From Eledone cirrhosa (taxonomy: Eukaryota), in assembly GCA_964016885.1 (NCBI GenBank), contig OZ024743.1:284766001-284830000 (forward strand): DNA of 64,000 nucleotides, given 5' to 3'. The translations under genes were made by a program, and so were the position numbers. This document shows, piece by piece, positions 3,340-57,600 of this stretch (position 1 is its first letter; each line of letters begins with the position of its first letter). The notes below the pieces were generated by a model. That model did no database searches. It had not been told where the DNA came from and saw nothing but the letters and a program-made list of their open reading frames with translations.

Positions 3340-3676
3340 AATACATATATATATATATACATATATATATAAATACATATATATATATACATATATATAT
3401 ACATATAAATACATATATATATATACATATATATATAAATACATATATATATATACATATATATATACATATAAATACATATATATATATACATATATAT
3501 ATATATACATATATATACATATATATACATATATATACATATATATATATACATATACATATATACATATATATACATATATATATATATACATATACAT
3601 ATATACATATATACATATATATACATATATATACATATATATACATATATATACATATATACATATATATATATAC
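3296..3676. repeat. (TA)n-derived microsatellite
   Basis: Direct reading. Confidence 0.97.
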
Positions 3677-3841
3677 ACTACTGCTCTAACAGACGACAAG
3701 GACTTCCTAATCATTGCAGGAGATTTTAACGGACACGTAGGTAAACACTGCGACGGCTTCAATAGAGTACATGGAGGCCATGGAGTTGGCACAAGGAATG
3801 AGGAAGGATTCAGACTTCTAGAATTCTGCGACGCCAATGAC

Positions 3842-6337
3842 ATGTCGATATGTAACACAAACTTTAAAAAACCCGACAACCACCTGATCACCTATAGATC
3901 AGGGGAGCACTCTAGTCAGTTAGATTTTATCCTCATCAGAGGACGTGACAGATGGACGGTTGTAAACACAAAAGCCTTCCCTAGTGAGGAATGTACATCC
4001 CAACATAGCTTAGTTGTCAGCGACCTCACGGTCAGAACTAGACGAGCCCTGAAACAGAGGCCAACCTGGAGAAGAAAGATCTGGAAGCTGAAAGTCCCCT
4101 CAACCAGTAACAGATTTAAAGATATTTTACTCAACGCCTACGACAGTAAAGAAGAACAGATAGAGACATTTAACGTAGAAGAGAACTGGGAGTTCCTAAA
4201 AAATAACTTACTAGAGGCGACGGATGAGGTTTGTGGCTGGAGTAAGACCTCAAGCAGGAGGAGAGTGACTTGGTGGTGGAACAATAAGGTAGATGAAGCA
4301 GTCAAGGCCAAGAGACAGGCATGGAAAGAATGGAAGAACGGGGGGAGCAGGGTACATTACATAGAGACCAAGAGGGAAGCTAGGCGACAAGTATACTTAG
4401 CTAGGAGGGAAGCAGAGGATAGAAAATTCAAGCATGTTTTACAACGTGAGGACCAGAAACAGGAGGTATTCAAGATTGCGAGGCAGTGTGTCAGAGATAG
4501 TTGTGATGTCATTGGAGAGAAGTGTATCCGGAATGATAAAGGTGAGCTTGCCCTCACAAGTGCTGAGAAGAAAGATGCATGGAAGAGTCATTATGATAGA
4601 TTACTAAATGAGGAGAATGCATGGGAAGAAGAGACCCTACCCCACGTAGACCCTATAGAGGGACCAGCAGTACAAGTCAGCGGCAGCGTAGTAAGTAAGG
4701 CAATCAGAGATATGAAGATAGGGAAGGCAACCGGTCCATCGGGTATAGCTGCCGAGATGCTGAAGGCATCTGGGTCTGTAGGTCACACTATAACCACACG
4801 TATCGTTAACCAGGTAATACTAGAGGGGGCCATACCAAAAGATTGGTGCAGTAGCATCATTGTCAACTGCTACAAAGGTAAAGGCGATGCACTAGATAGA
4901 GGAAACTATAGAGGTATAAAGTTGATGGACCAGGTCATGAAAGTAACAGAAAGAGTTATAGCACAGCTGATTAGGGACCGGGTGAATATAGACGAGATGC
5001 AATTTGGGTTTGTTCCAGGGAAAGGCACCACTGATGCGCTCTTCCTTGTGAGGCAATTACAGGAAAAGTACCTAGCTAAAAGTAAGCCACTCTACTTGGC
5101 ATTTGTCGACCTTGAGAAAGCCTTTGACAGAGTTCCACGTGCAGTAATCTGGTGGGCTCTTAGAAAACTAGGAGTAGATGAATGGCTTGTGAAAGCGGTA
5201 CAAGCCATGTATAGGGGAGCAGTCAGCAAAGTTAGGATTGGCAATGAGTATAGCGAGGAATTTAGCGTACAGGTTGGGGTCCACCAGGGCTCTGTTCTTA
5301 GCCCTCTCCTGTTCATCATAGTCCTGCAGGCAATAACGGAGGAGTTTAAGACCGGATGCCCATGGGAACTCCTGTATGCTGATGACCTCGCACTCATAGC
5401 TGAATCTATGGTAGAACTAGAGAATAAATTCCAAACCTGGAAGCAGGGACTAGAGAGAAAGGGCCTCAAAGTCAACATGACAAAGACTAAGGTCCTTATA
5501 AGTAGACGAGAAAACAGAACCCAGATCCCCTCAGGGAAATGGCCTTGCTCAGTATGTAGGAAAGGTGTAGGTAGGAACTCCATTCTTTGCCCCAAATGCA
5601 AACAATGGGTACACAAGAGATGTAGCGGGATCTCAGGAAGCTTAATTAAGAATGTAGGATTCACATGCAGCAGCTGTGCTGAAACAGCAAGCAAACAGCC
5701 ACAGGAAACAAGTACCACCAATCTCTGGGAGGGCCCTGTAGAAACAGTAGACAGCTTCTGCTACCTAGGTGACCGAATTAGCAACGGAGGTGGGTGCTCA
5801 GAAAGTACAATAACTAGGGTAAGAACGGGATGGAAGAAGTTTAGGGAACTACTACCACTGCTAGCTGCAAAAGGCTTCTCCCTCAGAATGAAAGGCAGAC
5901 TGTATGATGCGTGTATCCGAACAGCGATGTTGCATGGTAGTGAGACCTGGGCGCTGAAGGTGGAAGACTTACGTAGATTAGAGAGAAACGAAGCCTGCAT
6001 GCTCCGATGGATGTGTAACAGTAATATACGTGAACGACAAAGCATAAATGAATTGAGAGAGAGACTGAGCATAAGAGGAATCAAATGCTGCGTGCAGGAG
6101 AGGCGGTTACGCTGGTATGGACATGTGATGCGTATGAAGGATGACAGCTGCATAAAAAGGTGCAGAGCACTAGAAGTTGATGGAAACCGCGGAGTGGGGA
6201 GACCCAAGATGACTTGGGATGAGGTGATAAAAGCCGACCTTACCCAACTACACCTCTCAAAGTCAATGACACACGACCGTGACTTCTGGCGTCACGCAGT
6301 AATACAGGGTACCCGACCTCCCATGGGTACATGCTGA
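3842..6337 (+). CDS. RTE LINE ORF: partial APE endonuclease, reverse transcriptase and PHD finger
   Basis: Motifs include GDFNGHVG (upstream, in frame), [40 protein letters not shown], a C4HC3 finger, [11 protein letters not shown] and GRPKMTW. Confidence 0.93.
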
Positions 6338-8262: not shown

Positions 8263-8406
<144 letters not shown>

Positions 8407-8621
8407 GTCAAAAATGTACATCTACATATGCATACTGAAATACTAGTGTGTATATGAATACACACACGTATACATATGTAGGTGTAACAAGTCTTTCACT
8501 GGTTGCTTTACTGTGACCACCCAGCTATTCCGTATGTAAACACACAGACAAACCGGTTTTTAGAGTCATACTGGTTTTCGGGGGAACACCTTCCCTCTAT
8601 TCTCCAGAAAGCCAGACAAGG

Positions 8622-8666
8622 AATATTGAACTAGTTTCGTTGTTGTTACAACTCATCAGCAATATT
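8622..8666 (-). ncRNA. Minimal type I hammerhead ribozyme
   Basis: Exact reverse complement of the 9140-9184 motif. Confidence 0.88.
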
Positions 8667-8751
8667 TACCTATCTACCGGCCCTTCTGGAGAATTGTAAA
8701 AGCACATATCGTTATATGCTTTTTCTATGAAAATTAGTAGTGGGCAGACTA

Positions 8752-8759
8752 ATTTGCAT
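8752..8759 (-). promoter_or_regulatory. Octamer motif ATGCAAAT about 86 nt upstream of the hammerhead
   Basis: Perfect ATTTGCAT on the + strand. The same arrangement occurs in the 54243 unit. Confidence 0.4.
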
Positions 8760-9139
8760 AGAGTGTGAGTACGCACCGGTTCAGCGGAGACGATAAAAAC
8801 AAATAACGAAACGAAATTAAATTTCGTTTCGTTTGTAACTCACTTTTGTATGACTGACGCTTAAACAATTAAGTCAAAAATGTACATCTACATATGCATA
8901 CTGAAATACTAGTGTGTATATGAATACACACACGTATACATATGTAGGTGTAACAAGTCTTTCACTGGTTGCTTTACTGTGAGCACCCAGCTATTCCGTA
9001 TGTAAACACACAGACAAACCGGTTTTTAGAGTCATACTGGTTTTCGGGGGAACACCTTCCCTCTATTCTCAATTTTCATAGAAAAAGCATATAACGATAT
9101 GTGCTTTTACAATTCTTCAGAAGGGCCGGTAGATAGGTA

Positions 9140-9184
9140 AATATTGCTGATGAGTTGTAACAACAACGAAACTAGTTCAATATT
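9140..9184 (+). ncRNA. Minimal type I hammerhead ribozyme
   Basis: AATATTG-CTGATGA-GTTGT(AACA)ACAAC-GAAA-CTAG-TT-CAATATT. This gives a 7-bp stem I, canonical core, 5-bp stem II and palindromic stem III (AACTAGTT), with predicted cleavage after GUU at 9177. Confidence 0.9.
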
Positions 9185-9677
9185 CCTTGTCTGGCTTTCT
9201 GGAGAATAGAGGGAAGGTGTTCCCCCGAAAACCAGTATGACTCTAAAAACCGGTTTGTCTGTGTGTTTACATACGGAATAGCTGGGTGCTCACAGTAAAG
9301 CAACCAGTGAAAGACTTGTTACACCTACATATGTATACGTGTGTGTATTCATATACACACTAGTATTTCAGTATGCATATGTAGATGTACATTTTTGACT
9401 TAATTGTTTAAGCGTCAGTCATACAAAAGTGAGTTACAAACGAAACGAAATTTAATTTCGTTTCGTTATTTGTTTTTATATATATATATATATACATATT
9501 TGTTTAATATTTTATCTTGACTCTGTATACCGTTTATCTTTCACCGAAAGTGGTTTTTCATTACATCTCTTCTTTCCATGATATCCGGAATACATTGAGT
9601 TCTTCATACGGATTGGACACTACCGTAAACTCTTGGTAGATTTATCTACATATATATATATATATATATACATATAG

Positions 9678-12272: not shown

Positions 12273-12315
12273 ATTAAAGACCATATATATATGTATATAT
12301 ATATATATATATATA

Positions 12316-15300
12316 TCATCATCATCATCATCTTCGTTTAATGTCCATTTTCCACGGTAGCATGGGTTAGACGGGAGTTGTCCCACTTGAGGCAAGGTTG
12401 GTCGGGTGACCGTGTCTCGGTCATATAGGACTATCTGGCAGGTTTTCTACGGCTGGATGCCCTTCCTAACACCAACCACATTTACAGTGTGGAACTGGGA
12501 ACTTTTTACCGTGTTATATTCACGGCCACATTACAGTGTGAACTGTGTTTTTTCTCGTGACACCTACACAATCTCGATCTCGATCTCATTATCTCATTTA
12601 TTTGGACTGGATGTTGTGGTACCAACTTTATAGAGAGAAGATGGTGTTGGTGGGAGGATAGGGTAGGGGTAGTGGATTGGGGCGTATATTTGGTTAAGAG
12701 GTGCCTACTGACTGTCTGTATTACTGCGTAGCACTAAAGATCTCGGTCCAGTGACATTGTCTTAGAGAGGTGCAAGTGTGTAAGGTCGGAATTTATCAGA
12801 TTGTCCCAGGTTTTTCTGGGTCTACCTATTCCGTAACTACCATCAATTTTGATCGCCCTGCACTTTTTTATACAGCTGTCGTCTTTCATGCGCATCACGT
12901 GGCCATACAAATGTAGTCTTCTCTCAAGTAAACAGCATCTGATCCCTCTTATTCCTAATTTCTCACTTAGTTCATTTATGCTTTGCCGTTCACGTATATT
13001 ACTATTACACATCCAATGGAGCATGCATGCTTCGTTCCTTTCCAGTCTACGCAGGTCCTCTGCACGTAATGCCCATGTCTCACTGCCATGTAGTATTGCT
13101 GTTCATATACAAGCATCATACAATCTGCCTTTCATTTTTAGAGAGAAACCTTTTGTGGCCAACAGCGGTATAAGCTCTCTGAACTTTTTCCATCCCGTTC
13201 TGACTCTGGCTACTGTACTTTCAGAACACCATCCACCACTGCTGATTTCGTCACCCAGGTAACGGAAAGTGTCTACTATTTCTATAGAACCATCTGGGCA
13301 ATAGAAGGGGCTAGTATCCTGTAGACACTTGCTACCTATTGCACCTGAGCATCGGCCACATATAAAGTCTACGTTCTTAGATAGTTTACCTGTGATCCCA
13401 CTACATCTTTTATGTACCCATACTTTGCATTTGGTACATAAAATTGAATTTCTGCCTACTCCTATACTACACACTGAGCAAGGCCATTTCCCTGAGGGTA
13501 CCTGTGCCTTATTTTCCTTTCTACAAACTAGGACTTTAGTCTTAGACAAGTTAACTTTAAGGCTTTTGATTTTAGGCCATGCTTCCATTTTTGGAATTTC
13601 TTTTCTAGTTCAGCCATTGATTCAGCTATGAGCGTTAGATCATCTGCGAATAGGAGTTCCCATGGGCAGCCGGTCTTGCATTCCTCTGTTATAGCCTGAA
13701 GGGCAATAATAAATAGGAGGGGGCTAAGGACAGAGCCTTGGTGAACACCAACTTTTACACTAAATTCTTCATAATATTCATTGTTAATTCTAACCTTACT
13801 GACTGTTTCATTATACATAGCTTGTATAGCTCTCACAAGCCATTCATCTACACCTAGTTTTCTAAGAGCCCACCAGATAATGGAGTGGGGGACTCTGTCA
13901 AAGGCTTTTTCCAGGTCTACAAAAGCTAAGTAGAGGGGTTTACTTTTAGCTAGGTACTTCTCTTGTAGTTGTCGTACAAGGAAAAGAGCGTCTGTGGTAC
14001 TTTTACCTAACACAAACCCAAACTGCATTTCATCTAGATCAATTCACTCTCTGATTAGTTGCGCTATAACTCTTTCTGTGACCTTCATGACCTGGTCAAC
14101 TAACTTAATGCCTCTATAGTTTCCTCTATCTAGAGCATCTGCTTTACCCTTGTAGCAGTTAATGATGATGCTGCTACGCCAGTCTTTTGGTATGACCCCA
14201 TTCTGTATTACTTGGTTAACTATACGGGTGACCATAGTATGTCCCACCATTCCAGATGCCTTCAACATCTCAGCAACTATCTCCGAAGGCCCAACTGCCT
14301 TGCCTGTCTTCATATCTTTGATTGCCTTACTTATTATACTACCTTTAACTTGCACCACTGGTCCTTATATTGGATCGATTTGGGGCAGACTATCTTTTTC
14401 CCACTTATTCTTCTCATTTAATAGTCTCTCGTAGTGACACTTCCAGGCTATCTTCTTATCAGCATCAGTGAGGGCAAGTACACCGTTATCATTACGGACA
14501 CACTTCTCCCCGACAATATCACTGTTTTCCTTGACACATTGTCTAGCAATCCTGAACACCTCGCGTTGTTGGTCCTCACGTTGTAGAACATACTTGAACT
14601 TTCTTTCCTCTGCTTCCCTTTTTGCAAGGTACACTTGTCCCCTAGCTTTTCTCCTGACCACTTGATAGTGCTCTCTACTTCCCCCATCCTGCCATACTTT
14701 CCAAGCCTGCTTTTTGGCCTTGATTGTCTCTTCTACCTTACTGTTCCACCACCAAGTTACTCTCCTCCTGCCAATAGGTCTGCTCCAGCTACAGATTTTA
14801 TCCGTTGCTTTCAGCAGGTTCACTTTCAAGAATTGCCACTGTTCCTCTATATCGCACGTCTCTAATTGCTCTTCCTCATTGTCAAAGGCATCAAGTAATA
14901 AGCTTTTAAATTTGTCACTGGCTATGGGGTCCTTCAACTTCCCTATTCTTCTCCTCAAGGTAGGCCTCCTCTGTCGTCATGTACGTCTATTCCTGACTGT
15001 GAGGTCACTAACTACTAGGCTATGTTGGGAGGTGCATTCTTCACGGGGGAGGGATTTAGTGTTTACAACAGACACTTTGTCTCGTCTTCTAGTAAGGATA
15101 TAATCTATCTGGCTGGCGTGTTCCCCTGATCTATAGGTGATCAAGTGGTTTTCACGTTTTTTGAAGTTTGTGTTACAGATAGTTAGGTTATTGGCGTCAC
15201 AGAATTCCAGGATTCTGAAGCCTTCCTCATTTCTATTTCCAACCCCATAGCCTCCATAGATTCCATCATAGCCATCACTATGTTGTCCAACGTGGCCGTT

Positions 15301-15617
15301 TAGATAACCAGCAATAATTAGGTAGTCACTGTCGGTTATTTGGGAGGTAGTGTGCATTAGCGTCTCATAGAACCTGTCCTTTATAACGTCAAGTAGACCA
15401 GATTGGGGTGCATAAGCGGATATTATTGTCACAATAGTTTTATTTAGAACTAGCCTTATTTTAATTATTCTGTCATTCACTCTATTTACGTCGATTACCT
15501 TATCTACCTATTTTTCAGCTAACATAATTCCTACTCTACCCAGTCCATTGTCATTTCCCATCCAGAAAAATTTATAGTATCGTTTTTTACCCACGATGAA
15601 TCTGGCAGACCCCCCAA
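12316..15617 (-). mobile_element. RTE LINE (family B-related), 5'-truncated, several stops and frameshifts
   Basis: Consecutive minus ORFs 14977-15480 (APE: SAYAPQ, SQIDYIL), 14365-14958, 14044-14358, 13528-14028 (RT, FADD), 13103-13588 (PHD) and 12734-13024. The 3' UTR and (CAT)n tail lie at 12316. Confidence 0.95.
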
Positions 15618-17390: not shown

Positions 17391-17426
17391 TCTTAACGTT
17401 TCGGAAGCTAGTCATTCATCAGAAGA
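17391..17426 (-). ncRNA. Minimal hammerhead-like motif in a short Penelope-type fragment between TA tracts
   Basis: Minus strand TCTT-CTGATGA-ATGACTAGCTTCC-GAAA-CG-TT-AAGA. Stem I and the core are intact and AACGTT is palindromic, but stem II is poorly paired. Confidence 0.6.
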
Positions 17427-17497: not shown

Positions 17498-19570
17498 ATG
17501 AGAGTAACATGGTGGTGGAACAGTAAGGTGGAGGGGTCAATTAAGGCCAAAAAGCAGGCTTGGAAAGTATGGCGGGATGGGGGAAGTAGAGAAGACTATC
17601 AAGTGGCCAGGAGGGAAGCTAGGAGACAAGTGTACTTAGCAAGAAGGGAAGCTGAGGAAAGAAAGTTCAAGCATGTTCTACAACGCGATGACCAAAAACG
17701 TGAGGTGTTCAGGATTGCTAGGCAATGCGTCAAGGAAAACCGTGATATTGTCGGGGAGAAGTGTGTACTAAACGACGATGGCACACTTGCCATCACCGAC
17801 GCTGATAAGAAGGTAGCTTGGAAGTGTCACTATGAAAGGCTACTAAATGAGGAGAATAAATGGGAGAAAGACAGTCTCCCCCATATCGACCCAATAGAGG
17901 GACCAGCAGTGTTAGTCGAGGGGAGTATAATAAGTAAGGCAATCAAGGATATGAAGACGGGTAAGGCGGCTGGGCCTTCGGAAATAGTTGCTGAGATGCT
18001 GAAGGCATCTGGCATGGTGGGACACACCATGGTCACCCGCATAGTTAACCAAGTCGTACAGAATGGGGTTGTTCCGAAGGACTGGCATAGCAGCATCATC
18101 GTTAACTGTTATAAGGGTAAAGGAGACGCCCTAGATAGGAGTAACTATAGAGGCATTAAATTAATCGACCAGGTCATGAAGGTCACGGAAAAAGTAATAG
18201 CGCAACTAATCAGAGAGAGAATTGACCTAGATGAAATGCAGTTCGGGTTTGTGTCAGGCAAAAGTACCACAGACGCTCTTTTCATAGTACGACAACTACA
18301 GGAGAAGTACCTAGCTAAAGGTAAACCCCTCTACTTAGCTTTTGTCGACTTGGAGAAAGCCTTCGACAGAGTCCCCCGCTCCATTATCTGGTGGGCTCTT
18401 AGAAAACTAGGCGTTGACGAATGGCTTGTGAGGGCTATACAAGCCATGTATAAAGAAACAGTCAGCAAGGTTAGAATTAACAACGAATATAGTGAAGAGT
18501 TTAGCGTAAAAGTTGGCGTCCATCAGGGCTCTGTTCTCAGCCCCCTACTATTTATTATTGCCCTTCAGGCTATAACAGAGGAGTTCAAGACAGGCTGCCC
18601 ATGGGAACTCCTATACGCAGACGACCTGACACTCATAGCAGAATCAATGGCCGAGCTAGAGAAGAAATTTCAAACATGGAAGCACGGCCTAGAGTCAAAA
18701 GGACTTAAAATTAACCTGGCTAAGACCAAAGTACTAGTTTGTAGGAAAGAAAACAAGGCGGCGGTCCCTTCTGGGAAATGGTCGTGCTCGGTGTGTAGGA
18801 AAGGCGTAGGTAGAAACTCCATTTTATGTCTTAAATGCAAAGTATGGGTGCATAAAAGATGTAGTGGGATCACAGGTAAGCTAACTAAGAACATAGATTT
18901 TACATGTGGCCGGTGCTCTGGTGCAATAAGTAGCAGCAAGTGCCCACAAAATACTAGCTCTTTCAATTGCGCAGAGGGTTCTATGGAAATAGTGGACAGC
19001 TTCCGTTACCTGGGCGATAAAATCAGCAGTGGGGGAGGGTGCTCTGAAAGTACTGTAGCTAGAGTCAGAACTGGTTGGAAAAAGTTCAGAGAGCTTATAC
19101 CACTATTAGCTGCTAAAGGGTTCTCCCTAAAAATGAAAGGCAGGTTGTACAATGCCTGCATACGAACAGCAATGCTGCATGGCAGTGAGACCTGGGCATT
19201 GTGTGCAGAGGATATACGCAGACTAGAGAGGAACGAAGCTTGCATGCTCCGCTGGATGTGTAACAGTAATATACGTGAACGGCAAAGCATAAACGAACTA
19301 AGGAAAAAATTAGAGATAAGAGGGATCAGATGTTGTTTACTCGAGAGAAGGCTACGTTGGTATGGACACGTGATGCGCATGAAAGTCGATAGCTGTATAA
19401 CAAAGTGCAGGGCAATAAAGATAGACGGTAGTCACGGAATAGGCAGACCTAGAAAAACCTGGGACGAGCTGATAAACTCCGACATCACACACTTACACCT
19501 CTCCAAGACAATGTCACTGGACCGAGACCTTTGGCGGTACTCAGTAACAGAGAAGACTCGCCTTACCTAA
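17498..19570 (+). CDS. RTE LINE ORF (RT plus PHD; APE missing)
   Basis: [25 protein letters not shown]4HC3 and RLRWYGHV. The ATG arises at the microsatellite junction. Confidence 0.88.
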   Translation: MRVTWWWNSKVEGSIKAKKQAWKVWRDGGSREDYQVARREARRQVYLARREAEERKFKHVLQRDDQKREVFRIARQCVKENRDIVGEKCVLNDDGTLAITDADKKVAWKCHYERLLNEENKWEKDSLPHIDPIEGPAVLVEGSIISKAIKDMKTGKAAGPSEIVAEMLKASGMVGHTMVTRIVNQVVQNGVVPKDWHSSIIVNCYKGKGDALDRSNYRGIKLIDQVMKVTEKVIAQLIRERIDLDEMQFGFVSGKSTTDALFIVRQLQEKYLAKGKPLYLAFVDLEKAFDRVPRSIIWWALRKLGVDEWLVRAIQAMYKETVSKVRINNEYSEEFSVKVGVHQGSVLSPLLFIIALQAITEEFKTGCPWELLYADDLTLIAESMAELEKKFQTWKHGLESKGLKINLAKTKVLVCRKENKAAVPSGKWSCSVCRKGVGRNSILCLKCKVWVHKRCSGITGKLTKNIDFTCGRCSGAISSSKCPQNTSSFNCAEGSMEIVDSFRYLGDKISSGGGCSESTVARVRTGWKKFRELIPLLAAKGFSLKMKGRLYNACIRTAMLHGSETWALCAEDIRRLERNEACMLRWMCNSNIRERQSINELRKKLEIRGIRCCLLERRLRWYGHVMRMKVDSCITKCRAIKIDGSHGIGRPRKTWDELINSDITHLHLSKTMSLDRDLWRYSVTEKTRLT

Positions 19571-19965
19571 ATATATAGTAAAACCTACTCCAGCCAGTAG
19601 GCATCTCTAACAAAATACACCCCGTCCCACCCCCACCCCCACCCCATCCACACCACCCCGTTCTATGTAAAGTTATGTTGGTGCCGCGCCATCGAGGCCG
19701 AAACAAATGAGATCGTGTAGGTGTCACGACAAAAAAACACACAGTCCACGCTGTAATGTGGCCGTGTAGGCAACACGGTAAAAACCTCCCAGACCCACAC
19801 TGTAAATGTGGTTGGTGTTAGGAAGGGCATCCAACTGTAGAAAACCTGCCAGACAGTCCTATGCAAGCAAGACAATCACTCTTGCCTCAAGTGGGACTAC
19901 CCCCGTCCAAACCCATGCAAGCGTGGAACACGGACGTTAAACGTTGATGATGATGATGATGATGA
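17498..19965 (+). mobile_element. RTE LINE family B, 5'-truncated, young
   Basis: Uninterrupted 690-codon frame, family-specific 3' UTR and (GAT)n tail. Confidence 0.96.
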
Positions 19966-20096
19966 TATGTGTGTGTGTGTAGAGAGAGAGAGAGAGTGTG
20001 TGTGTGTCTGTGGTGCTGAGACCAGAGAGACTACAAATCAAGGGAGTACTCTATGCATGGGAAGAAGCAGAGTGGGAATATATTTTACCTTCTTCT

Positions 20097-20133
<37 letters not shown>

Positions 20134-20140
20134 ATATGAA

Positions 20141-21706
20141 GTAAGTCACTCTACCTGGCATTCATTGATCTCGAGAAAGTCTTTGACAGAGTTCCCCGTG
20201 CTATAATCTGGTGGGCTCTTAGAAAACTAGGAGTAGATGAATGGCTTGTGAAAGCTGTACAAGCCATGTATAGGGGAGCAGTCAGCAAAGTTAGGATTAG
20301 CAATGAGTATAGCGAGGAATTTAGCATAGAGGTTGGTGTCCACCAGGGCTCTGTTCTTAGCCCTCTCCTGTTCATCATAGTCCTGCAGGCAATAACGAAG
20401 GAGTTTAAGACCGGATGCCCATGGGAACTCCTGTATGCTGATGACCTCGCACTCATAGCTGAATCTATGATAGAACTAGAGAAGAAATTTCAAACTTGGA
20501 AGCAGGGACTAGAAAGAAAGGGTCTCAAAGTCAACCTGACAAAGACTAAGGTCCTTGTAAGTAGACGAGAAAACAGAACCCAGATCCCCTCAGGGAAATG
20601 GCCTTGCTCAGTATGTAGGAAAGGTGTAGGTAGGAACTCCATTCTCTGCCCCAAATGCAAACAATGGGTACACAAGAGATGTAGCGGGATCTCAGGAAGC
20701 TTAACTAAGACTGTAGGCTTCACATGTAGCAACTGTGCTGAGACAGCAAGCAGCAAACAGCTACAGGAAATAAGTACCACCAATCTCTGGGAGGGCTCTG
20801 TAGAGACAGTAGAAAGCTTCTGCTACCTAGGTGACCGAATTAGCAGCAGAGGTGGGTGTTCGGAAAGTACAACAACTAGGGTAAGAACGGGATGGAAGAA
20901 GTTCAGGGAGCTACTACCACTGCTAGCTGCAAAAGGCTTTTCCCTCAAAATGAAAGGCAGACTGTATGATGTGTGTATATGAACAGCAATGTTACATGGT
21001 AGTGAGACCTGGGTGCTGTCTGTGGAAAACTTGCATAGATTAGAAAGAAACGAAGCCTGCATGCTCCGATGGATGTGTAATAGTAATATACGCGAACGGC
21101 AAAGCATAAATTAATTGAGAGAGAGACTGAGCATAAGAGGAATCAAATGCTGTGTGCAGGAGAGGCGGTTGCGTTGGTATGGACATGTGATGCGTATGAA
21201 GGATGACAGCTGCATAAAAAGGTGCAGAGCACTAGAAGTTGATGGAAACGAGGAGTGGGGAGACCCAAGAAGACCTGGGATGAGGTGATAAAAGCCGACT
21301 TTACCCAATTACACCTCTCAAAGGCGATGACACATGACCGTGACCTCTGGCATCACGCAGTAATACAGAAGACCCGACCCCCCCAAGGGTACAAGCCGAA
21401 GCTGAAGCATATAGACAATATGCCCCACACCCTCCCACTGCAAAGTGGTCGTGGAGGTGCCACGGCAAAAAAGCACCCAGCCCACACTGTAAAGTGGACG
21501 TGTAGGCGCCACGGAAAAAAGCACCCAGCACTCACTGTAAATGAGGTTGGTCTTAGGAAGGGCATCCAGCTGTAGAAATCAAGCAAGAATCAGTTCCCGT
21601 ATGAGCAAGGCATGGTCAGCCGACCAGACACTGCCCACAACAGGACAACCCGTCTAACCCATGCTAGCATGGAAGAACGGACGTAAAACGTTGATGATGA
21701 TGATAT
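20141..21706 (+). mobile_element. RTE family A, 5'-truncated, with stops and frameshift
   Basis: ORF 20248-20982 closely matches 3842-6337 and has the same 3' UTR and (GAT)n tail. Confidence 0.95.
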
Positions 21707-23957
21707 GACAGTCCGTCATTAAGCTAGCAGAAGTCTGATGAGATTTCAATTCCAGAGTCAGGCCTGATCAATAGAGATTGAACCTTGACTTGAGCTGATC
21801 AATTGCGAAACATGCATCACATCTGAATAAACTTAATGAAAATTTGACGCCTCATCCATACTTATTAATTATATATGTGTGTGTGTGTGTGTGTGTGTGC
21901 GCCTTGCATATGCTATCCCTCAAAGGTTTTAACACATACTTGTTTTTGCTTTATTTCCAACTTGTAACCTAACACTTCCTATGCAAACATAATCTCTTTC
22001 TCACTCTCACCCTGTCTTCCTCCCTCCTCTATCTCATTACTTTAAAAATCTGTTTGTGATTTCTATTGGTTTTCTGGGTTCTATTGTGAAGTTTTTTTAA
22101 CCAGTCTGGTGCATCAACTCATTCTGTCTTTGCCAATGTTTACGTCACCTTCATCTTTGATGTTCCTAACTAATAATAATTATTTGCAGTGTTGTTTTTA
22201 TAACCAGTTACCTTTATTGTTAAGTCAATCACAAACAATGAAGTGTTAGAAATATTACAAAACTGAGATTAAAACAACTAAATGGGTATGAAATCCATTC
22301 ATTGACACTGGCTATCTAACTTTGACTTTGAAATTTATCTATTGAAGAAAAGAAGAAACTGTTGGTGTCCACATAACCAGGGACATTCATGTGTTCTTTC
22401 TATTGAAATGATCAATGTTCACCATACTTTCCAAAATTGATTCCCTGGTAATCAATCACGCCACCACCACTACCAACAACAACACCTATTCATTTGACAT
22501 TATCTATAGAAAGTTCTACTAATAGCTTTTACTATTCTCATTTATACCCAATCAAATTACTCAGTTCCCTTAACTGAAGCAATATCCGATTGGCTCAGTT
22601 ATTACTTCTCTCAACTCCTCTCCCCGTCCAAATTTCTTTGTGTTGTTTCTTTTATTAAACAGGATAATATTCTTCTCTTTTGCGTTTACATGCATTCATG
22701 TATTTACATTGAAGATTGAATGTTCACATTTAATTTCTGCTGAGTTGCTCATGAATAAAGTATTTTAGATTCAATGAAAAAGGTGTGGTGACCAGTTAAG
22801 GATTGATATGTTTGTCCAATACCTACCAGAAAGATTTAACAGTTTTTATTTTGTATCCCCTCTTCTACATGGTCAATCGTTAATAAAGTATATAATAAAA
22901 TTAATCTCTGTTGATGTTTCCATTATAATCCTTTTCAATGTGGAGATAGTTGCAGTTTTAACAATATCTCAGTATCAGAAGCTTTTTAAATAAATCTGGA
23001 AGTGAATGACTGGATCCACAAATGGTTCTTGCAAATAAAGCACTGACATTCACTGAAGCAGGTCACACGGTGTTTCTTTTGTGTCTGTAGCTTGTTGGTG
23101 CTTTCAATAACTTTGACAGGAGATTAAATGTTCAAAATTATTGTATGAGCTAGGTTTAACATCTCATGTTCAGAGATACAGGAAAGTCATGCAATGGTTG
23201 AGAAATGTGTGTGTGTGAACATGTATGTTTGTGTGGAGGGGTGTGCTCCTATGTGAATTTATTTTAGCATCCATTTGTTTAATTTGATGTGTTGGTTTCT
23301 AATTGTGTGTTTATATTTCTATGATTTTTTTTCTTTTTCCTATTGTATGAGCCTGTGATTGTCTAGTGTTGATCTTAGTATTTGCTGAGTGTATAATTTT
23401 ATTTGAATATTTATTTGTATTTGTGTGTTTTATTTTAATATTTATTTGTTTGTATTTGTATGTGTTCATGTTATTGTTTTATATTTATATGTGTGTATAG
23501 ATATGTTTGCATATGTGCACTTTTTATAGTTTAAACCACGTTAATGAGACAAAATAAAATTTATTATAGCAGATTTTGACTTGATTCTACAGTTATTTTC
23601 AAACATTTCTAAAAAAGATCAACTTTGGCCCTTTGTAAAATCTCCAATATTAAGAAGATTAGCATTGCCAATATAGTTATTTTGGTGAATGTGTTTATTT
23701 AGTTTTAATTGTTTTGTTTTATTTCTTTAATCTTAATAAAAACAAGACACTCCTTTGTTATAGTTCAGAGCAGACATGGAAATATAATTGATGAAAACCA
23801 CCACCATGCTAATGGTTTCAAGAGAGGACAATTAGCTGAGACAATAGTGTTCTGAAGAACAACTAACTGAGCAGTCAGTAGTTTATATTATATCACTGTA
23901 CTGTGTTAAAGGTCAGAACATTTAAACTTTATATGGTCCAGTTCACCTAGCTGTAAA

Positions 23958-27232: not shown

Positions 27233-28607
27233 TTCTTCAGCTGTGTTAAAGACATGACAACTTCTCAAGTGTTAGTGATCTCCACGATAAATACCCATAG
27301 TACACTCTATAAAAGGTTGATGAAAGGCATAGCTATAGATGACCAAACAAGCAGTTGAGATGGTTCTTCAGCAGTGAAAATAACATAACAATCTCCTTAG
27401 TGCTGATGCCATGATAACATGCACTCAGCAGAGTGCCAGAGCATGCAATCAAGATGCACACTGTGCTGAATGTGGAAACATATGTAAGTGAGATGCAGGC
27501 CCCTAGCTCATCTATGTGCTCAATAGCTCTGCTTGAGTACTGACTTGGTTTGTGATGGCCCATCTAACCCTTGCTAGCAGGAAAAATGGACATCAAATGA
27601 TGATATGTTACCAAAATGAATTAGAAAATCTTTGGATGAAGAATCAAGAAATCTAATCCAAACTCTAAAGGAAGTTTATGTAGCTGAGACACTAAAAGTT
27701 TTACAAATAGCAGGTTAACTAGAATCATCCAATAAGCAAAGAATGCATCCAATGTTAATATTAACAAGTAATTCACGTGGAGGTGCCATGGCAAAAAAGC
27801 ACCCAGCACTCACTGTAAATGAGGTTGGTGTTAGAAGGGCATCCAGCTGTAGAAATCAAGCCAGAATCAGTTCCCGTCCCAGCCTTGCAAGCAGGGAAAA
27901 GCAGACGTAAAATGATGATGATGATGATGATGAATTCATATATTCAAGAATATCACAAATATATATTTGGACTATATTTTATTTTTTATTTTCAAAAGAT
28001 CTATCATTTTTAACACCTTTCTCCCTATGGGCCATCACAAACCAAGTCAGTACTCAAGCAGAGCTACTGAGCACATAGATGAGCTAGGGGCCTGCATCTC
28101 GCTTACATATGTTCCCACATCCAACTTAGTGCTCAGACAGGTCACAGTGTGCATCTTGCTTGCATGCTCTGGCACTCTACTGAGTGCATTTTATCATGGC
28201 ATCATCCAAAGATTTTCTAATTCATTTGGGTAACATATCATCATTTGATGTCCATTTTTCCTGCTAGCAAGGGTTAGATGGGCCATCACAAACCAAGTCA
28301 GTACTCAAGCAGAGCTATTGAGCACATAGATGAGCTAGGGGCCTGCATCTCACTTACATATGTTTCCACATTCAGCACAGTGTGCATCTTGATTGCATGC
28401 TCTGGCACTCTGCTGAGTGCATTTTATCATGGCATGAGCACTAAGGAGATTGTCATGTATTTTCACTGCTGAAGAACCATCTCAACTGCTTGTTTGGTCA
28501 TCTATAGCTATGCCTTTCATCAACCTTTTATAGAGTGTACTATGGGTGTTTATCGTGGAGATCACTAACACTTGAGAGGTTGTCATGTCTTTAACACAGC
28601 TGAAGAA
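27233..28607. repeat. Local inverted duplication (~405-bp arms) with an extra partial direct copy
   Basis: 27233-27639 is the reverse complement of ~28202-28607 with few mismatches. 28027-28200 repeats 28278-28433. Confidence 0.92.
27775..27932 (+). mobile_element. 3' tail fragment of the RTE-A partner SINE
   Basis: Matches 8097-8250 and ends in (GAT)n. Confidence 0.85.
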
Positions 28608-47812: not shown

Positions 47813-48573
47813 CTACTATAAATCATAGTGATTTGAGCAATTGTAATGGCAATAGTGTAATTGTTAACACTGAAAAGTGTACAGGCAATGGTCATGTTGC
47901 TCTTTTATATCTTAAATTGATGTTTATCATATCAAAATATGAACTGAAGTAAAATTTTAACAGTTAATTCATATGACTATAACTTGCAAAGGCATGAAAA
48001 ATTAAAATAAACGGATGTCAGAACTGGGTCATAAATATGATACACCTTAAGCTTACTTCTTACTTTGCTGCACTTACCACCCTAATAGTTACTATAATAA
48101 TATAGTCATATCAACTCTTGTTAATTAATGTTCAGTAAAGTTGAAATAAGATATTATTCTCGATTTCATGCCTTCACTTCTAACATTTTAACTACTATTT
48201 TTAGATAATAAAAAAGATGCATATTTTTATCTATATTTTACTTTTTGTTTTCGTATTTTAAATGATTTTCTTGTTTCAATTTCTTGACTGTAATGCAGTA
48301 GAGAATCAATACTTAAATTATATATTTAGGTGTGCGGTTATTCAGAATGGTTGATAGCAAACATACTTGATGCTATTAAGGAGAGGACAAGCCAAACTAA
48401 TCTCATTGATTTTATGCACCAGAATCATTAGACACCAAGACACAGTCACTGCATGAATTATAGTCACAATTAAAACTCTCAAAGTTGTGACAATTGCTTG
48501 GCCTGACAATATTTGATTACATATATATACATTCTGCTTAGTACAACACCAATATACCTACTGGAAACTACAC

Positions 48574-48690
48574 ATTGCGTGCTCATTTTGGTGAACCTAC
48601 AGTAACTTGACATTACAATCCCTAAACTATATATATATCTAGGGAGTGTAACTTGTAGTTACTGCAGGTTCACCCGGGTGAGCACTCAAT
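48574..48690. repeat. Imperfect palindrome centred on a short (TA)n
   Basis: ATTGCGTGCTCA..GGTGAACCT.CAGTAACT..TCCCTA pairs with TAGGGA..AGTTACTG.AGGTTCACC..TGAGCACTCAAT. Confidence 0.8.
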
Positions 48691-48736
48691 ATTTAGGTTC
48701 ACTTCTGTGTTGAGGTGTAGAGCTATACAGAGTGTA

Positions 48737-48980
48737 ATATATTGAAAGGATAACAAGGACAATTGGTTACTCCTTCATTACATTTATTGGTAGGTAACGC
48801 GTGTTTCGCCACTGATCAGCTCAAGGTTCGATCTGTATCGATCCTACCCAACTCAATAATCGGCAGCTCGACGGACCCTTTAAAATGGTATAATATACCA
48901 TTTTAGTGGCGAAACGCGCGTCACCTACCAATAAATGTAATGAAGGAGTAACCAATCGTCCTTGTTATCCTTTCAATATA
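48737..48980. mobile_element. Fold-back element with ~76-bp arms each carrying the 3' half of a hammerhead
   Basis: 48737-48812 is the reverse complement of 48905-48980 with about 3 mismatches. The arm reads AGTGGC-GAAAC-GCGC-GTC-ACCTACC-AATAAA. Confidence 0.75.
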
Positions 48981-50208
48981 TATATAATATATATATAGTA
49001 ATCATCATCACCGTTTAATATCCATTTTTCCATGCTTGCAATATTTATATATATATCAGGCTCCTTATATTTAAGTCGCTTGAGATTTTATATATTGATC
49101 CATTAGTGATATGTATAAGATGTTCTATATATATATATATATATATATATACAGAGAGAGAGATAGAGATAGATAGATATGTGTGAGTGTGTGTGTAGAT
49201 ATGGAAAGTAGATCTAATCTATTGTTTGAAATAATTAATTAGTTTTATTGACACCATTCAGTGGAACATATATTGCATCAGTTAACTCATCACATGCTGA
49301 CATTTTCCTCATCTTTATCCCCTCACATTTTTGTACTCCACATTTATTCTTTTTTGTATTTTTGTTCTTTTTTATTTTACTTTTATATTTTTCTTTCCCT
49401 TTTCATTTGATTGCCTTTATTCATGTTTTATAAGTATATATGTATGAAAATATTTTTCCAGGCAAATATAAAATTATTGTGTACAGTGCTCAGATGCACT
49501 ACAACTCATCAAAGTACATAGAATTATCGACAAATGTCAGGAAAGTGAACAGTGTATGAGTCATGATATACACACAGATACATGTGTGCATGTGTATGGA
49601 GGTGAATTGTAGTGTTGGTGAATTCCGGGAAGCATGGAGGTTTTGAAGGATGGAGTATATTTATGAAGGATGGAGTATATTTATATGTATCTATATATAT
49701 GAGTGTATGCATATTTTCAAATTATAAATATATATAAATTATTTGTATATTTCGATGAATTTAGGCATACGTATGATTTAAAAAACAACAACAAGATCAA
49801 GCTTTTAAAAAGTAACATTATCAATGACCTATACCTTGACAGAATAAGCTCATGGTAAATACTTCCTCCCATCACTCTCCATTTTCTTTACTTCTACCTA
49901 TACTACAACTTTTCTTCTATTCCCTCTCTTTATGTTTATGTTTACTACTTCCATCCAATACCTCTTCCCTTTACCAAATTTTTACTATATATGAAAAATG
50001 TTTAACTTACTAAATACTTTTTTGAGAAGTCAGTATTGGCATAACTTCAAAGTAAGCAGTTACTATTAGTAATAAATATTATTTTGTCCCTACAAATAGT
50101 ATTGAATTCTTTGTTCACTGCATGCTTTATGTACTTAAGTATACAAACCTATAAAACAAGCATTTATTGAAGTTCCTCTGAGGCAAACATTATTTACAAT
50201 ATTGACTG

Positions 50209-54249: not shown

Positions 54250-54296
54250 GCAACTGACAACATTGTTTTTCACTTGTTAGTGGTTATCAACGCTGC
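54250..54296 (-). ncRNA. Variant-core minimal hammerhead-like motif (U3:A8, A12)
   Basis: Minus strand GCAGCG-TTGATAA-CCACT(AACA)AGTGA-AAAA-C-AATGTT-GTC-AGTTGC. Confidence 0.55.
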
Positions 54297-54370
54297 ATAT
54301 CCAACTAATTTTTACTGAGACAAAAATAATCTATAGAGTTCTCGACTATGTATATGAGCTGATGAAGCTC

Positions 54371-54378
54371 ATTTGCAT
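54371..54378 (-). promoter_or_regulatory. Octamer motif ATGCAAAT about 75 nt upstream of the hammerhead-like motif
   Basis: Perfect ATTTGCAT on the + strand. Confidence 0.4.
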
Positions 54379-54569
54379 ATGGAACAGTAGCCGGCCAGGA
54401 TTAAATAAATCAAAAATTAGTATAGGTGCTCCAATATAGCATTATACACATATATGTACGTGTTGTATACAAAATGTTTCTGAAAAACATTTTACAACCT
54501 TCTGCTATGAATATTTTTAAGGTTGTGACCACTGTCACACATCTTTAGTCTTAGCAAAAACCAAGGGAA

Positions 54570-54616
54570 GCAACTGACAACGTTGTTTTTCACTTGTTAG
54601 TGGATGTCAAAGCTGC
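54570..54616 (-). ncRNA. Second copy of the variant hammerhead-like motif
   Basis: Minus strand GCAGCT-TTGACAT-CCACT(AACA)AGTGA-AAAA-C-AACGTT-GTC-AGTTGC, with a perfect palindrome ACAACGTTGT in stem III. Confidence 0.55.
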
Positions 54617-57600
54617 ATATCTACCAGAGACAAAAATAAGCTAGAATCTTATAGATTTTTTGCCTATGTATATGAGCTGATAAAGCTCATTTGCTAAGAC
54701 TAAGGATGTGTGTCAGCAGTCACAACCTTAAAAAAGTTCATAGTGGAAGGCTGTCAAATGTTTCTACTGTATACAACACGTACATATATGTATATAACGT
54801 TATGTTGAAGCACCTTTACTAAGTCATAAACAGTTATTAGGAGAAATCTTAGAAAATTGGCCATCACAGATTATCTGAAGAAAAGTTGTATAGATATTTG
54901 CTGTATTGTAGACTCATCTAATCCATTATGCCAGTATAAAACTTCTGCAAAAATGATGATAGCTATGATGATGTACAGTATATTTCTTTTAAATGCAGAG
55001 AGAGTGGAATTACATTACATCAACTCAATTTCTTAAGAATTATCTCCATTTATATCTTGACAGTAATGAACGAAGTTTTTTTTACTGTTTGTTGTGATAA
55101 AACAAAAATCTATCATTATAATTACTATTGCATATTTTTCTGTATTATTTTCTGTATATCTTCTGCATATCTTCTGTATTATTGGCAAATATCTGATATG
55201 TTCTATTATATTTATTTATCAAAAATATATAATCAATAATGAATGAAACTATTTTTCATGTTTTAAGAATATTCAATTAATAGAATTCAACCCAACAAAT
55301 AGTTTTATTTAACATTTTGTAAATTATTATAATTATTTTCTCTTAACAACAACAACAACAACACCAATCATAATAATGAAACAACTCCAAAAATGCAGAA
55401 TGATAGAACTTTTCATTGGAAGAAAATTAGATCAAAACTGATGAATTTATTGATGTGTGAATTTTAATTCTGAATCTGTTATTCATTGCTCTTTGTAATT
55501 TATAAATGGGCATAACAGAAGATCAAGGCCAAATTGCAGATGAACTTTTCTTTGTTTCTATTTTTTGTCAAGGCTATTAGTGTTTTTATTTTAAACTACC
55601 ATAGTGCTAATTGTATTGAACTCTTCATACTGATCATATAGAAAATAAAAATAACTATATTACAGGACCAACACATGATGAATGATGCTACAGTACAGAT
55701 CTATACTGACATGCTAATATTATTCAAAATTTTATGATTTTGATTAACTAATAAAACTATAGATTATTATGTTTGAATTCTTTTACAGTTGTTTTTACTG
55801 TTAACTGTCGCAGTCTGCTGTTCAAATCTTATTTGATTTAATTTTTTGCCTTTCAGCATTTTATTGCCGATAACATAAGTATGAAATCACTTGAGTGTAT
55901 ACTCATTCTAAAAAAATATTTGTTTTTAATCAAATCAAAACAAATTAATTAGTGTCTAACATATAATGGCAGCAAGTTGGCAGAAATAGTTGAGTGCTTT
56001 GTTGTAGGCTCTGCTACTTCCTTCTGACAAAATGATTTTATAAAAACCATTTAATCATTATTATCCTCATTCTACATGTTTTCCATGTTGGCAAAGGTTG
56101 TGTTGCCGTTGTCTAAGACTAGATTGGTCAAAGAACCACATCTTGCTTATTTGTTCTATATTTGGCTTCAGTTTACAATATAACCTCAAATCCCACTTGG
56201 ATGGACTATCTTTCACTGTTCCTCAGTTGCTAAACTAATTACGAGAATTGTAATTTAGATTGGATTTATTCAATCAGCTCCCTTCAAACATTAGTCTTGT
56301 GCTGAATCAAATACAAGAAATAATTATATATAGCATACATTTAGCAGTAAATTATCCTGTGATGTTGGACACATCAGATGATTTTTATCATAGATTGCAA
56401 CTAACCTTAAGAATACTTCAAATATTTTCTTTCTGTTAATGATTTCCAAAATCTATATCACCTTACATATATTAATTCAAGTATAGAAGCATTCAAACTT
56501 TTATGAAAATTAATAAAGAAAAATATAATTTGCTTATATAATGACTAGAATAATCTGTTGCAATAATATTTGATTGATTTCTTACATAAATTTAAAGTAA
56601 AAATGTATAGAGACGTAGCAAAAAAAGTGTGTGACGTTCATATCTTTCTCAGGGGTAATAAATAACTAAACTGAAAAGATTTCAATTGATAATCAAGCTT
56701 ATCTTCTACAGTCTAACACTTGCCATATACTCATACTAATATTATATTAATCATAAATATCACTGAATTAGAATTATCACAATATCTTAGATAGAGAATA
56801 AATTATATTTCCTGTTTGACTTTTCTGAAAGTCTTTTTTTCTTTTCCCAATTCTCTTGTGAATCTATATAGTTAAACTCAATATCTTATATACATACATA
56901 GATAAATGTATTTACCTATGTTAATGATTTTTAAAAAATAATCTATGCCTCTATATGTTATGTGTTAGAAGTATGGGGTTTTGAAATTAAATATTTAATT
57001 CATTCATATATTCAAAATATAGTTTTTTTTATAGATTCTTTAAATCTTTCATATGAAACATTGTAAAAAGAAAGTAGCTTTTCTTTCATAATTTCAGTAC
57101 CATATAACAATAATCATCACTTTTTTGAGGTGTTGCAGTGTTTATTAATTTTACATATTCATTTTTGTTCTCTGTGCAATAACCTTCTTTATATTCATAC
57201 TTCTAATTACTGTTACTAATATTCCTGAATGTTTCTGATGTGTTATTTTCTATGTCTAACCACTTCTCTGACTTTCTCATATCTCTTAAGAGCAGGCATG
57301 GCTGTATGATTAAGAAGTTTACTTCGCAATCACATGAGTTGGGCTTGATTCCATTGCATGCTATTTTACACAAGCTTTGAATCAACGTAAGCTATGTGAG
57401 TGAAATTGAATAGCCAGCTGGGTTGTATTTGTTCTTGGGTGATAGACTTTAATCAGCACCCAGTTTAACACCACCACCACCACCCAGTTTATACCACCAC
57501 CACTATCCAGTTTAACTCCATCACTTGTTCCTTGACTGTTGCAAGCATTCAGACAAGTTCTTCAGTTTCTGTCTCTATAACCTCCACCAGTCTCTGTCTT

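Follow-up and report, generated by a model that had tools for sequence, protein, structure and literature searches.

Metazoan non-LTR retrozymes are a known class of hammerhead ribozyme repeats (PMC7229834; Li et al. 2026, bioRxiv 10.64898/2026.07.22.740005), and the accessible text of these two reports describes no internal promoter. A 2020 review, in the portion available, assumes that retrozymes are transcribed by read-through, as no promoter has been seen in them (PMC7761336). For newt satellite 2, an internal snRNA-type promoter is reported to drive transcription by Pol II (PMC2220036 and PMC6765202, in passages citing Coats et al. 1994). Penelope-like elements have been described as leaving tandem, inverted and 5'-truncated insertions in (TA)n (PMC8557442, available excerpts), and a U3-A8 variant of the hammerhead core has been reported in those of schistosomes (PMC4209133, available excerpts).

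The window analysed here, a stretch of 64,000 nucleotides from Eledone cirrhosa, contains two hammerhead repeats, which we term family A (466-467 bp) and family B (320 bp). A preliminary description had placed the octamer ATGCAAAT on the ribozyme-sense strand at 8752-8759 and 54371-54378, 75-86 nt upstream of hammerheads with an AACA loop on stem II, in two unrelated units of 466 and 320 bp. A window scan found both octamers at these positions on the minus strand, with gaps to stem I of ~85 nt in A and ~75 nt in B; the AACA loop is present in both hammerheads, and at the level of detection the units are indeed unrelated (z = 0.0 for the A versus B consensus with box and core masked). Measured from octamer start to core, the distance is 100 nt in A, 88 nt in the window copy of B, which carries an 8-nt deletion, and 96 nt in the B family consensus. 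The octamer word as such is not enriched in the window (5 observed versus 6.9 expected); two of the five occurrences extend to the 12-nt box TATGCAAAT(T/G)AG, and these are the only such sites in the window. In each of the two families, the other ribozyme copy has had its octamer lost or truncated at an inversion junction. An Rfam scan of the window gave no match at the gathering score. The coordinates are collected in Table 1. Elsewhere in the window, a third minimal hammerhead-like motif (17399-17422, minus strand) has no octamer, is truncated on its upstream side by AT-rich simple sequence and shows 94% identity over 131 nt to a copy at locus L186; several copies of one dispersed repeat family, 1-2.6 kb long and 75-93% identical, lie at 3675-6307, 12311-15353 and 17500-21708.

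Table 1. Positions of the family A and family B features in the 64-kb window.
Feature	Position	Strand	Remark
Family A monomer, 466 bp	8401..8866	-	Sole promoter-bearing unit of the window insertion; (TA)n end at 8401
A octamer box TATGCAAATTAG	8749..8760	-	Same sequence as the box at -77 in U6 locus L102
CCACT, octamer+16	8739..8743	-	Weak match to the U1/U2/U4 YCASY motif
Imperfect inverted repeat, 3' arm	8727..8737	-	Pairs with the octamer box in predicted RNA
TATA-like box (CATATAAC), octamer+41	8711..8718	-	
Minimal type I hammerhead	8622..8666	-	7-bp stem I; 5-bp stem II closed by an AACA loop; stem III of 2 bp, palindromic
Upstream partial A unit, 5'-truncated	8867..9070	-	No octamer, no ribozyme
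Inverted 5'-truncated A arm	9071..9479	+	Hammerhead 9147-9177; octamer lost at junction; ends in 74-nt extension and (TA)n
B octamer box TATGCAAATGAG	54368..54379	-	Identical to the boxes of U6 locus L101 and RNase MRP
TCAGC, octamer+16	54358..54362	-	U1/U2/U4-like motif
TATA-like box, octamer+43	54330..54335	-	TATAAG in the family; deletion-damaged in the window copy
Family B hammerhead	54250..54296	-	U3-A8 core 54290-54284, AACA loop, G12 changed to A
Upstream B unit	54555..54694	-	Decayed hammerhead (core 54610); octamer truncated at inversion junction 54694
Match to host distal snRNA box in upstream B unit	54573-54562	-	238 nt before next TATA
Inverted B-unit piece	54690..54822	+	82% identical to 54417-54558

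Family A is a young, non-LTR retrozyme with an intact core. Its hammerhead (core 8659-8653, intact motif 8659-8629, minus strand) has the CUGANGA, GAAA and NUH elements together with stems I-III, and is predicted to be cut between 8629 and 8628. A 211-nt query (8590-8800) retrieved 918 candidates from the 3.0-Gb genome, and all 40 of those scored were full-length matches of 100% identity. The 30 loci fetched represent 24 independent insertions of tandem units of 466-469 bp, with 5' truncation and (TA)n flanks; an inverted arm is present in 18 of the 24, the ends recur at two sites 74 nt apart, and arrays range from dimers to at least 30 units. The unit contains no ORF of 150 aa or more. The monomer is predicted to be strongly folded (z = -9.1), and the minimum-energy fold of a dimer transcript is the double hammerhead. 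With a single promoter-bearing unit and a single ribozyme on each strand, the insertion in the window could not release a monomer alone. Some A copies vary at the A of the box's AG extension.

Family B is an old, non-LTR retrozyme, of which both copies in the window are decayed. Its core is of the U3-A8 type (TTGACAA in 16 of 30 aligned copies), and in that form the family consensus has a complete hammerhead core. In both window copies G12 reads A, and the upstream copy is also altered at A9, so that the core is not intact; to judge from these changes, both copies are likely dead. The genome contains 270 candidates with a period of 320 bp, the nearest copies being 74-83% identical, and a perfect octamer is kept in 19 of 30 aligned B copies. 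The preliminary description had proposed that the octamer should be conserved among family copies, and here the outcome depends on the level of comparison: across families the expectation stands, as detailed below, while within a family conservation is nearly uninformative, A being too young and the octamer of B being 96% conserved versus 83-91% in its flanks, in a set chosen by similarity to an octamer-containing query. We therefore do not use within-family conservation as proof of selection, the A copies being near-identical and picked by identity and the B signal weak.

The box was compared with the snRNA-type promoters of the same genome, for which we took the best-scoring matches (20 of 42 for U1, 20 of 48 for U2, 12 of 42 for U4, 20 of 48 for U6, 8 of 15 for U6atac and the single one for RNase MRP), many of the fetched loci being copies within clusters. 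In vertebrates, the octamer is the distal element, located ~200-250 nt before the start. The preliminary description had applied that layout here, with a PSE expected ~200 nt downstream, and neither part agrees with the host promoters: their box, of the form ATG(C/G)(A/T)AAT(T/G)AG, is proximal and seen only in Pol III type-3 genes, while the distal element is another, TTACCTCCCTTG-type motif, matched at about -255 to -290 in 10 of 15 representative promoters. A candidate vertebrate-like PSE ~185 nt downstream of the octamer was accordingly dropped. Of the 20 U6 loci, 12, from three independent places, have the box at -76 to -78, seven have it displaced to -270/-275 and one lacks it; in RNase MRP (1/1) and in the top U6atac locus it lies at -77, and it is absent from the other seven of the eight U6atac loci, which resemble retrocopies. 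Within the L107 group (U6 cluster, C19), an inserted repeat separates the box from the gene in six U6 copies and puts the box at -270. None of the 52 U1, U2 and U4 loci has the box within -330. All 52 have instead a YCASY motif at -56 to -58, found in none of the fetched U6, U6atac and MRP loci, as well as AATTA at around -90 and a TATA-like word at around -30; in the U4 cluster, 11 of 12 loci also have a weaker octamer-like word at -109, without the AG end. As far as promoter sequences can tell, then, the octamer of Eledone cirrhosa is a proximal element of the Pol III class (U6/U6atac/MRP). A similar word starts the predicted U6 PSE of Schistosoma japonicum at -71 (PMC5460494, available part), which we regard as a hint only.

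The TATGSWAATKAG box of the host Pol III type-3 promoters is matched at 12 of 12 positions by both A and B, with a per-site p of ~1e-5. A genome-wide pattern that excludes A and B, with 55-85 nt separating the box from the hammerhead core, gave 18,957 matches versus 0 in the reversed control, and among the first 100 listed 98 belong to a family C and 2 to a family D. The complementary box-plus-core pattern gave 7,101 matches, mostly A, versus 1 in the reversed control. The snRNA-type signature in hammerhead tandem repeats claimed from the two window units thus recurs across families far above background, where the two counts reflect amplification and not independent events. With box and core masked, the families fall into three mutually unalignable groups, A/C, B/D/G/I and H; the box-bearing lineages are A/C, B/D and H, with two further box-bearing families among the rare matches. 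The pattern also matched at L218, which we did not count as box-bearing family because its stem I is poor. The offset from box to core is similar (88-105 nt) in at least three unalignable lineages, which may share an ancestor too old to align instead of having each captured the box independently. The simplest alternative, that a common octamer happens to lie in two AT-rich repeats, has the unenriched word in the window and the descent of the large copy numbers from a few ancestors in its favour, but the complete 12-nt identity to host boxes and the recurrent offset make coincidence very improbable.

The box does not accompany every hammerhead of this genome. An octamer-independent hammerhead pattern, which by design excludes B, C, D, G, H and I, gave 13,974 matches versus 231 in the control; 83 of the first 100 listed are A-type, and the other 17 rows, corresponding to 16 hammerhead places, have no octamer within 300 nt even when one mismatch is allowed. 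Family F accounts for eleven of these 16 places; its repeats lie on either side of a Penelope-like ORF at L192.

Downstream of the octamer, the PSE-like element suggested by the preliminary description for comparison with host U1, U2 and U6 genes has a counterpart in a YCASY motif followed by a TATA-like box. YCASY lies at octamer+16 in A (weak), B, C, D and H, and TATA follows 25-28 nt later, which is the spacing of U1, U2 and U4; a YCASY 26-28 nt before TATA, as in the host Pol II snRNA promoters, is found in B, C, D, H, G and I, and weakly in A. At fixed offset the joint p for YCASY and TATA runs from 9e-5 to 2.6e-3 in B, C, D and H: the B consensus has 9e-5, H has 2e-4, C has 4e-4 and D has 5e-4 to 2e-3; A reaches 0.03, with p = 0.08 for CCACT alone; the window serves as background for these values, Pol III genes score 0.004-0.04 (best of 7 offsets) through TATA alone, and TATA-like words are common by chance in DNA of 35% GC. 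The distal box is matched 238 nt before TATA in B and 227 nt before it in G and I (host range 227-258), where it comes from the preceding unit, directly behind the cut site; these matches come from one lineage, and the matched sequence also forms part of stem I. No distal-box match is found in A or C, so that A combines this absence with the weakest YCASY of the families compared. AATTA ~60 nt before TATA is not in place in A or B (in B it is displaced by ~13 nt). The combination of box, YCASY and TATA is absent from every host gene fetched. For the snRNA promoters of insects, the fixed distance between elements is known to be important (PMC1761439, available part).

Families G and I (L160:2318-2800, L121, L133:2800-3113) are relatives of B that lack the octamer and match host U1/U2/U4 elements: TAATT, YCAGT and TATA occur at U1 spacing (p ~1e-5), and with the distal box all four elements are matched. 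Their comparison with B suggests a promoter switch within one lineage. Another hammerhead-like family, known from two decayed copies (L219 and L220; G000:C1:22607354 and 31479845), has U6-type spacing with TATA at +47/48, and in L219 a T5 run after a long hairpin; it is possibly a Pol III version of the arrangement.

We consider it quite probable that the box has a promoter role of some kind, whichever polymerase is used. Given the motifs and their spacing, our preferred reading is that A and B are non-autonomous hammerhead retrozymes in which the box is part of an internal snRNA-type promoter with YCASY and TATA, probably served by Pol II. The alternative of a U6-type Pol III promoter, in which short transcripts would start just before the ribozyme and full monomers would arise only by read-through, is suggested by the box itself, which is identical to U6 and MRP boxes and absent from all 52 Pol II snRNA loci, by the family C monomer examined, which has only T4 runs, by the U6 spacing of the small L219/L220 family, and by the Pol III transcription reported for Schistosoma hammerhead repeats (PMC6765202, available part). 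Spacing argues against it, since from octamer start to TATA-like word the repeats of A, B, C, D and H measure 41-43 nt versus 46-48 nt in all five host Pol III promoters compared. Runs of T5 are expected to stop Pol III. The A and B monomers contain T5 or longer runs, two T5 per A unit and several per B unit; in A, a T5 is reached ~270 nt past the predicted start, ahead of the next promoter and ribozyme, and yet arrays of at least 30 complete units exist. Such runs, expected to terminate Pol III before it reaches the next ribozyme, argue against its transcription of A and B, and we hold a Pol III promoter to be rather unlikely.

The box could also have been kept for reasons other than transcription. 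In the repeats it forms the 5' arm of a hairpin (-3.4 to -11.9 kcal/mol, versus -0.9 to -3.0 in host promoters) whose pairs covary, A having TAG/CTA where B and D have GAG/CTC. The distal-box match is at the same time the 3' strand of an extended stem I; RNA structure could thus explain part of the conservation. The covarying pairs would fit an octamer retained as a hairpin arm or inherited as the relic of a captured promoter, with transcription by read-through from outside, as would the spread of families G and I without the octamer and the statement of a review, in its available text, that retrozymes seem to have no promoters (PMC7761336). However, the box arm is exact across lineages while its 3' partner drifts, which is the pattern of a protein site and not of a helix, and neither the fixed YCASY/TATA spacing nor the U1-like elements of G and I would be needed for a hairpin. 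An explanation by RNA structure or inheritance without promoter function therefore seems improbable to us, about as much so as a Pol III promoter.

The insertions of A bear Penelope-type traits, namely 5' truncation, inverted arms, an end extension and a (TA)n microsatellite target. A young autonomous Penelope-like family is present in the genome (L244 and 149 other places; 150 scored copies of 98-100% identity; ORFs of up to ~713 aa), in which the only hammerhead-like motif close to the 3' end is degenerate, and no box lies 3' of the ORF in any of 30 loci. Pfam returned no significant family for these Penelope-like ORFs, which we identify by their RT and GIY-YIG motifs. No shared 3' end was detected, A having no similarity to the 3' regions of two Penelope-like families. 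Pieces of Penelope-like ORFs near A at L022, L025 and L028 were rejected as partners, since they are separated from it by (TA)n or unrelated DNA and appear to be neighbours sharing a target. The hammerhead of a further family, E, was in none of 30 loci located in a 3' repeat of the adjoining ORF; as it lies outside the ORF's repeat, only family F is tied to an ORF. In the window itself, a 407-bp inverted repeat of 98% identity, together with palindromic inverted pieces in (TA)n, occupies 27233-28607 and 48521-48981; all of these are possibly other Penelope-type insertions.

Under the preferred reading of an internal, probably Pol II-served promoter, the life cycle of these repeats could be pictured as follows. 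Transcription would start ~30 nt past the TATA box, which puts the start 15-29 nt ahead of the same unit's catalytic core (in A near 8686-8688), and would thus take in the 5' strand of stem I. Two minimal hammerheads in tandem would pair through the palindromic stem III and then cut, and the released monomer, running from cut site to cut site, would carry the whole promoter of the next unit and likely circularise. A Penelope-like reverse transcriptase/endonuclease, acting in trans, would likely copy it into (TA)n, which would produce tandem and inverted arrays truncated at the 5' end. As the promoter would lie inside the copied RNA, each new dimer could be re-expressed.

More tentatively, we propose that several lineages may have captured parts of host snRNA promoters, built from them a chimeric promoter with a box of the Pol III class and spacing of the Pol II class, and shifted between layouts of the U1 type, the hybrid type and the U6 type. 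On this view, the 320-bp unit would approximate one snRNA promoter closed by a ribozyme, its distal box coming from the previous unit and being rebuilt only in tandems or circles, and animal retrozymes would be self-promoting. If this is true, the case of newt satellite 2 would extend to an invertebrate, and tandem or circular permutation would offer a route by which an upstream-type promoter passes through retrotransposition. A defined promoter signature, open to mutation and to comparison with host snRNA genes, is present in at least ~26,000 genomic units, so that the mode of transcription of these repeats is accessible to direct tests. The analysis also outlines promoter motifs of the U6 and U1 types in this animal, which are of use in guide-RNA expression and in studies of polymerase choice. 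In the openly accessible literature searched, we found no report of an snRNA-promoter arrangement in an invertebrate retrozyme.

How the two families relate to described systems can be summarized from the parts of the respective sources that are accessible. Like metazoan retrozymes, they are short non-coding tandem repeats in which each unit has a single type I hammerhead, they occur in thousands of copies and their RNA is strongly self-paired; Penelope-like enzymes have been proposed as mobilisers of that class (PMC7229834; bioRxiv 10.64898/2026.07.22.740005). What sets A and B apart from those retrozymes, which have canonical hammerheads, is the presence of host snRNA promoter motifs with a fixed spacing, the minimal form of the hammerhead, Penelope-style inversions and a 74-nt end extension. 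With the Penelope-like pLTR hammerheads they share the minimal type I form and the short palindromic stem III that needs a dimer (Cervera and de la Pena 2014, PMC4209133), and family B shares its U3-A8 core with the schistosome elements of the same report. They differ from Penelope-like elements (Craig et al. 2021, PMC8557442) in that A has no ORF and an extension of 74 nt instead of 30-40, and the pLTR hammerheads that we checked in Eledone cirrhosa lack the box. As in the Sm-alpha SINE-like repeats of Schistosoma (PMC6765202), the promoter would lie at the 3' end of the cleaved monomer, a position from which only tandems can propagate; the Sm-alpha promoter is reported to be of the Pol III kind, whereas here an upstream snRNA-type arrangement is found inside the copied unit. 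The parallel drawn earlier with newt satellite 2, a ~330-bp tandem hammerhead repeat, appears fair, in that both combine a hammerhead repeat with an internal snRNA-type promoter signature and the 320 bp of family B approximate one snRNA promoter and a ribozyme. In contrast to the vertebrate arrangement, the box of Eledone cirrhosa is proximal, comes from the Pol III type-3 class and is joined to spacing of the Pol II type.
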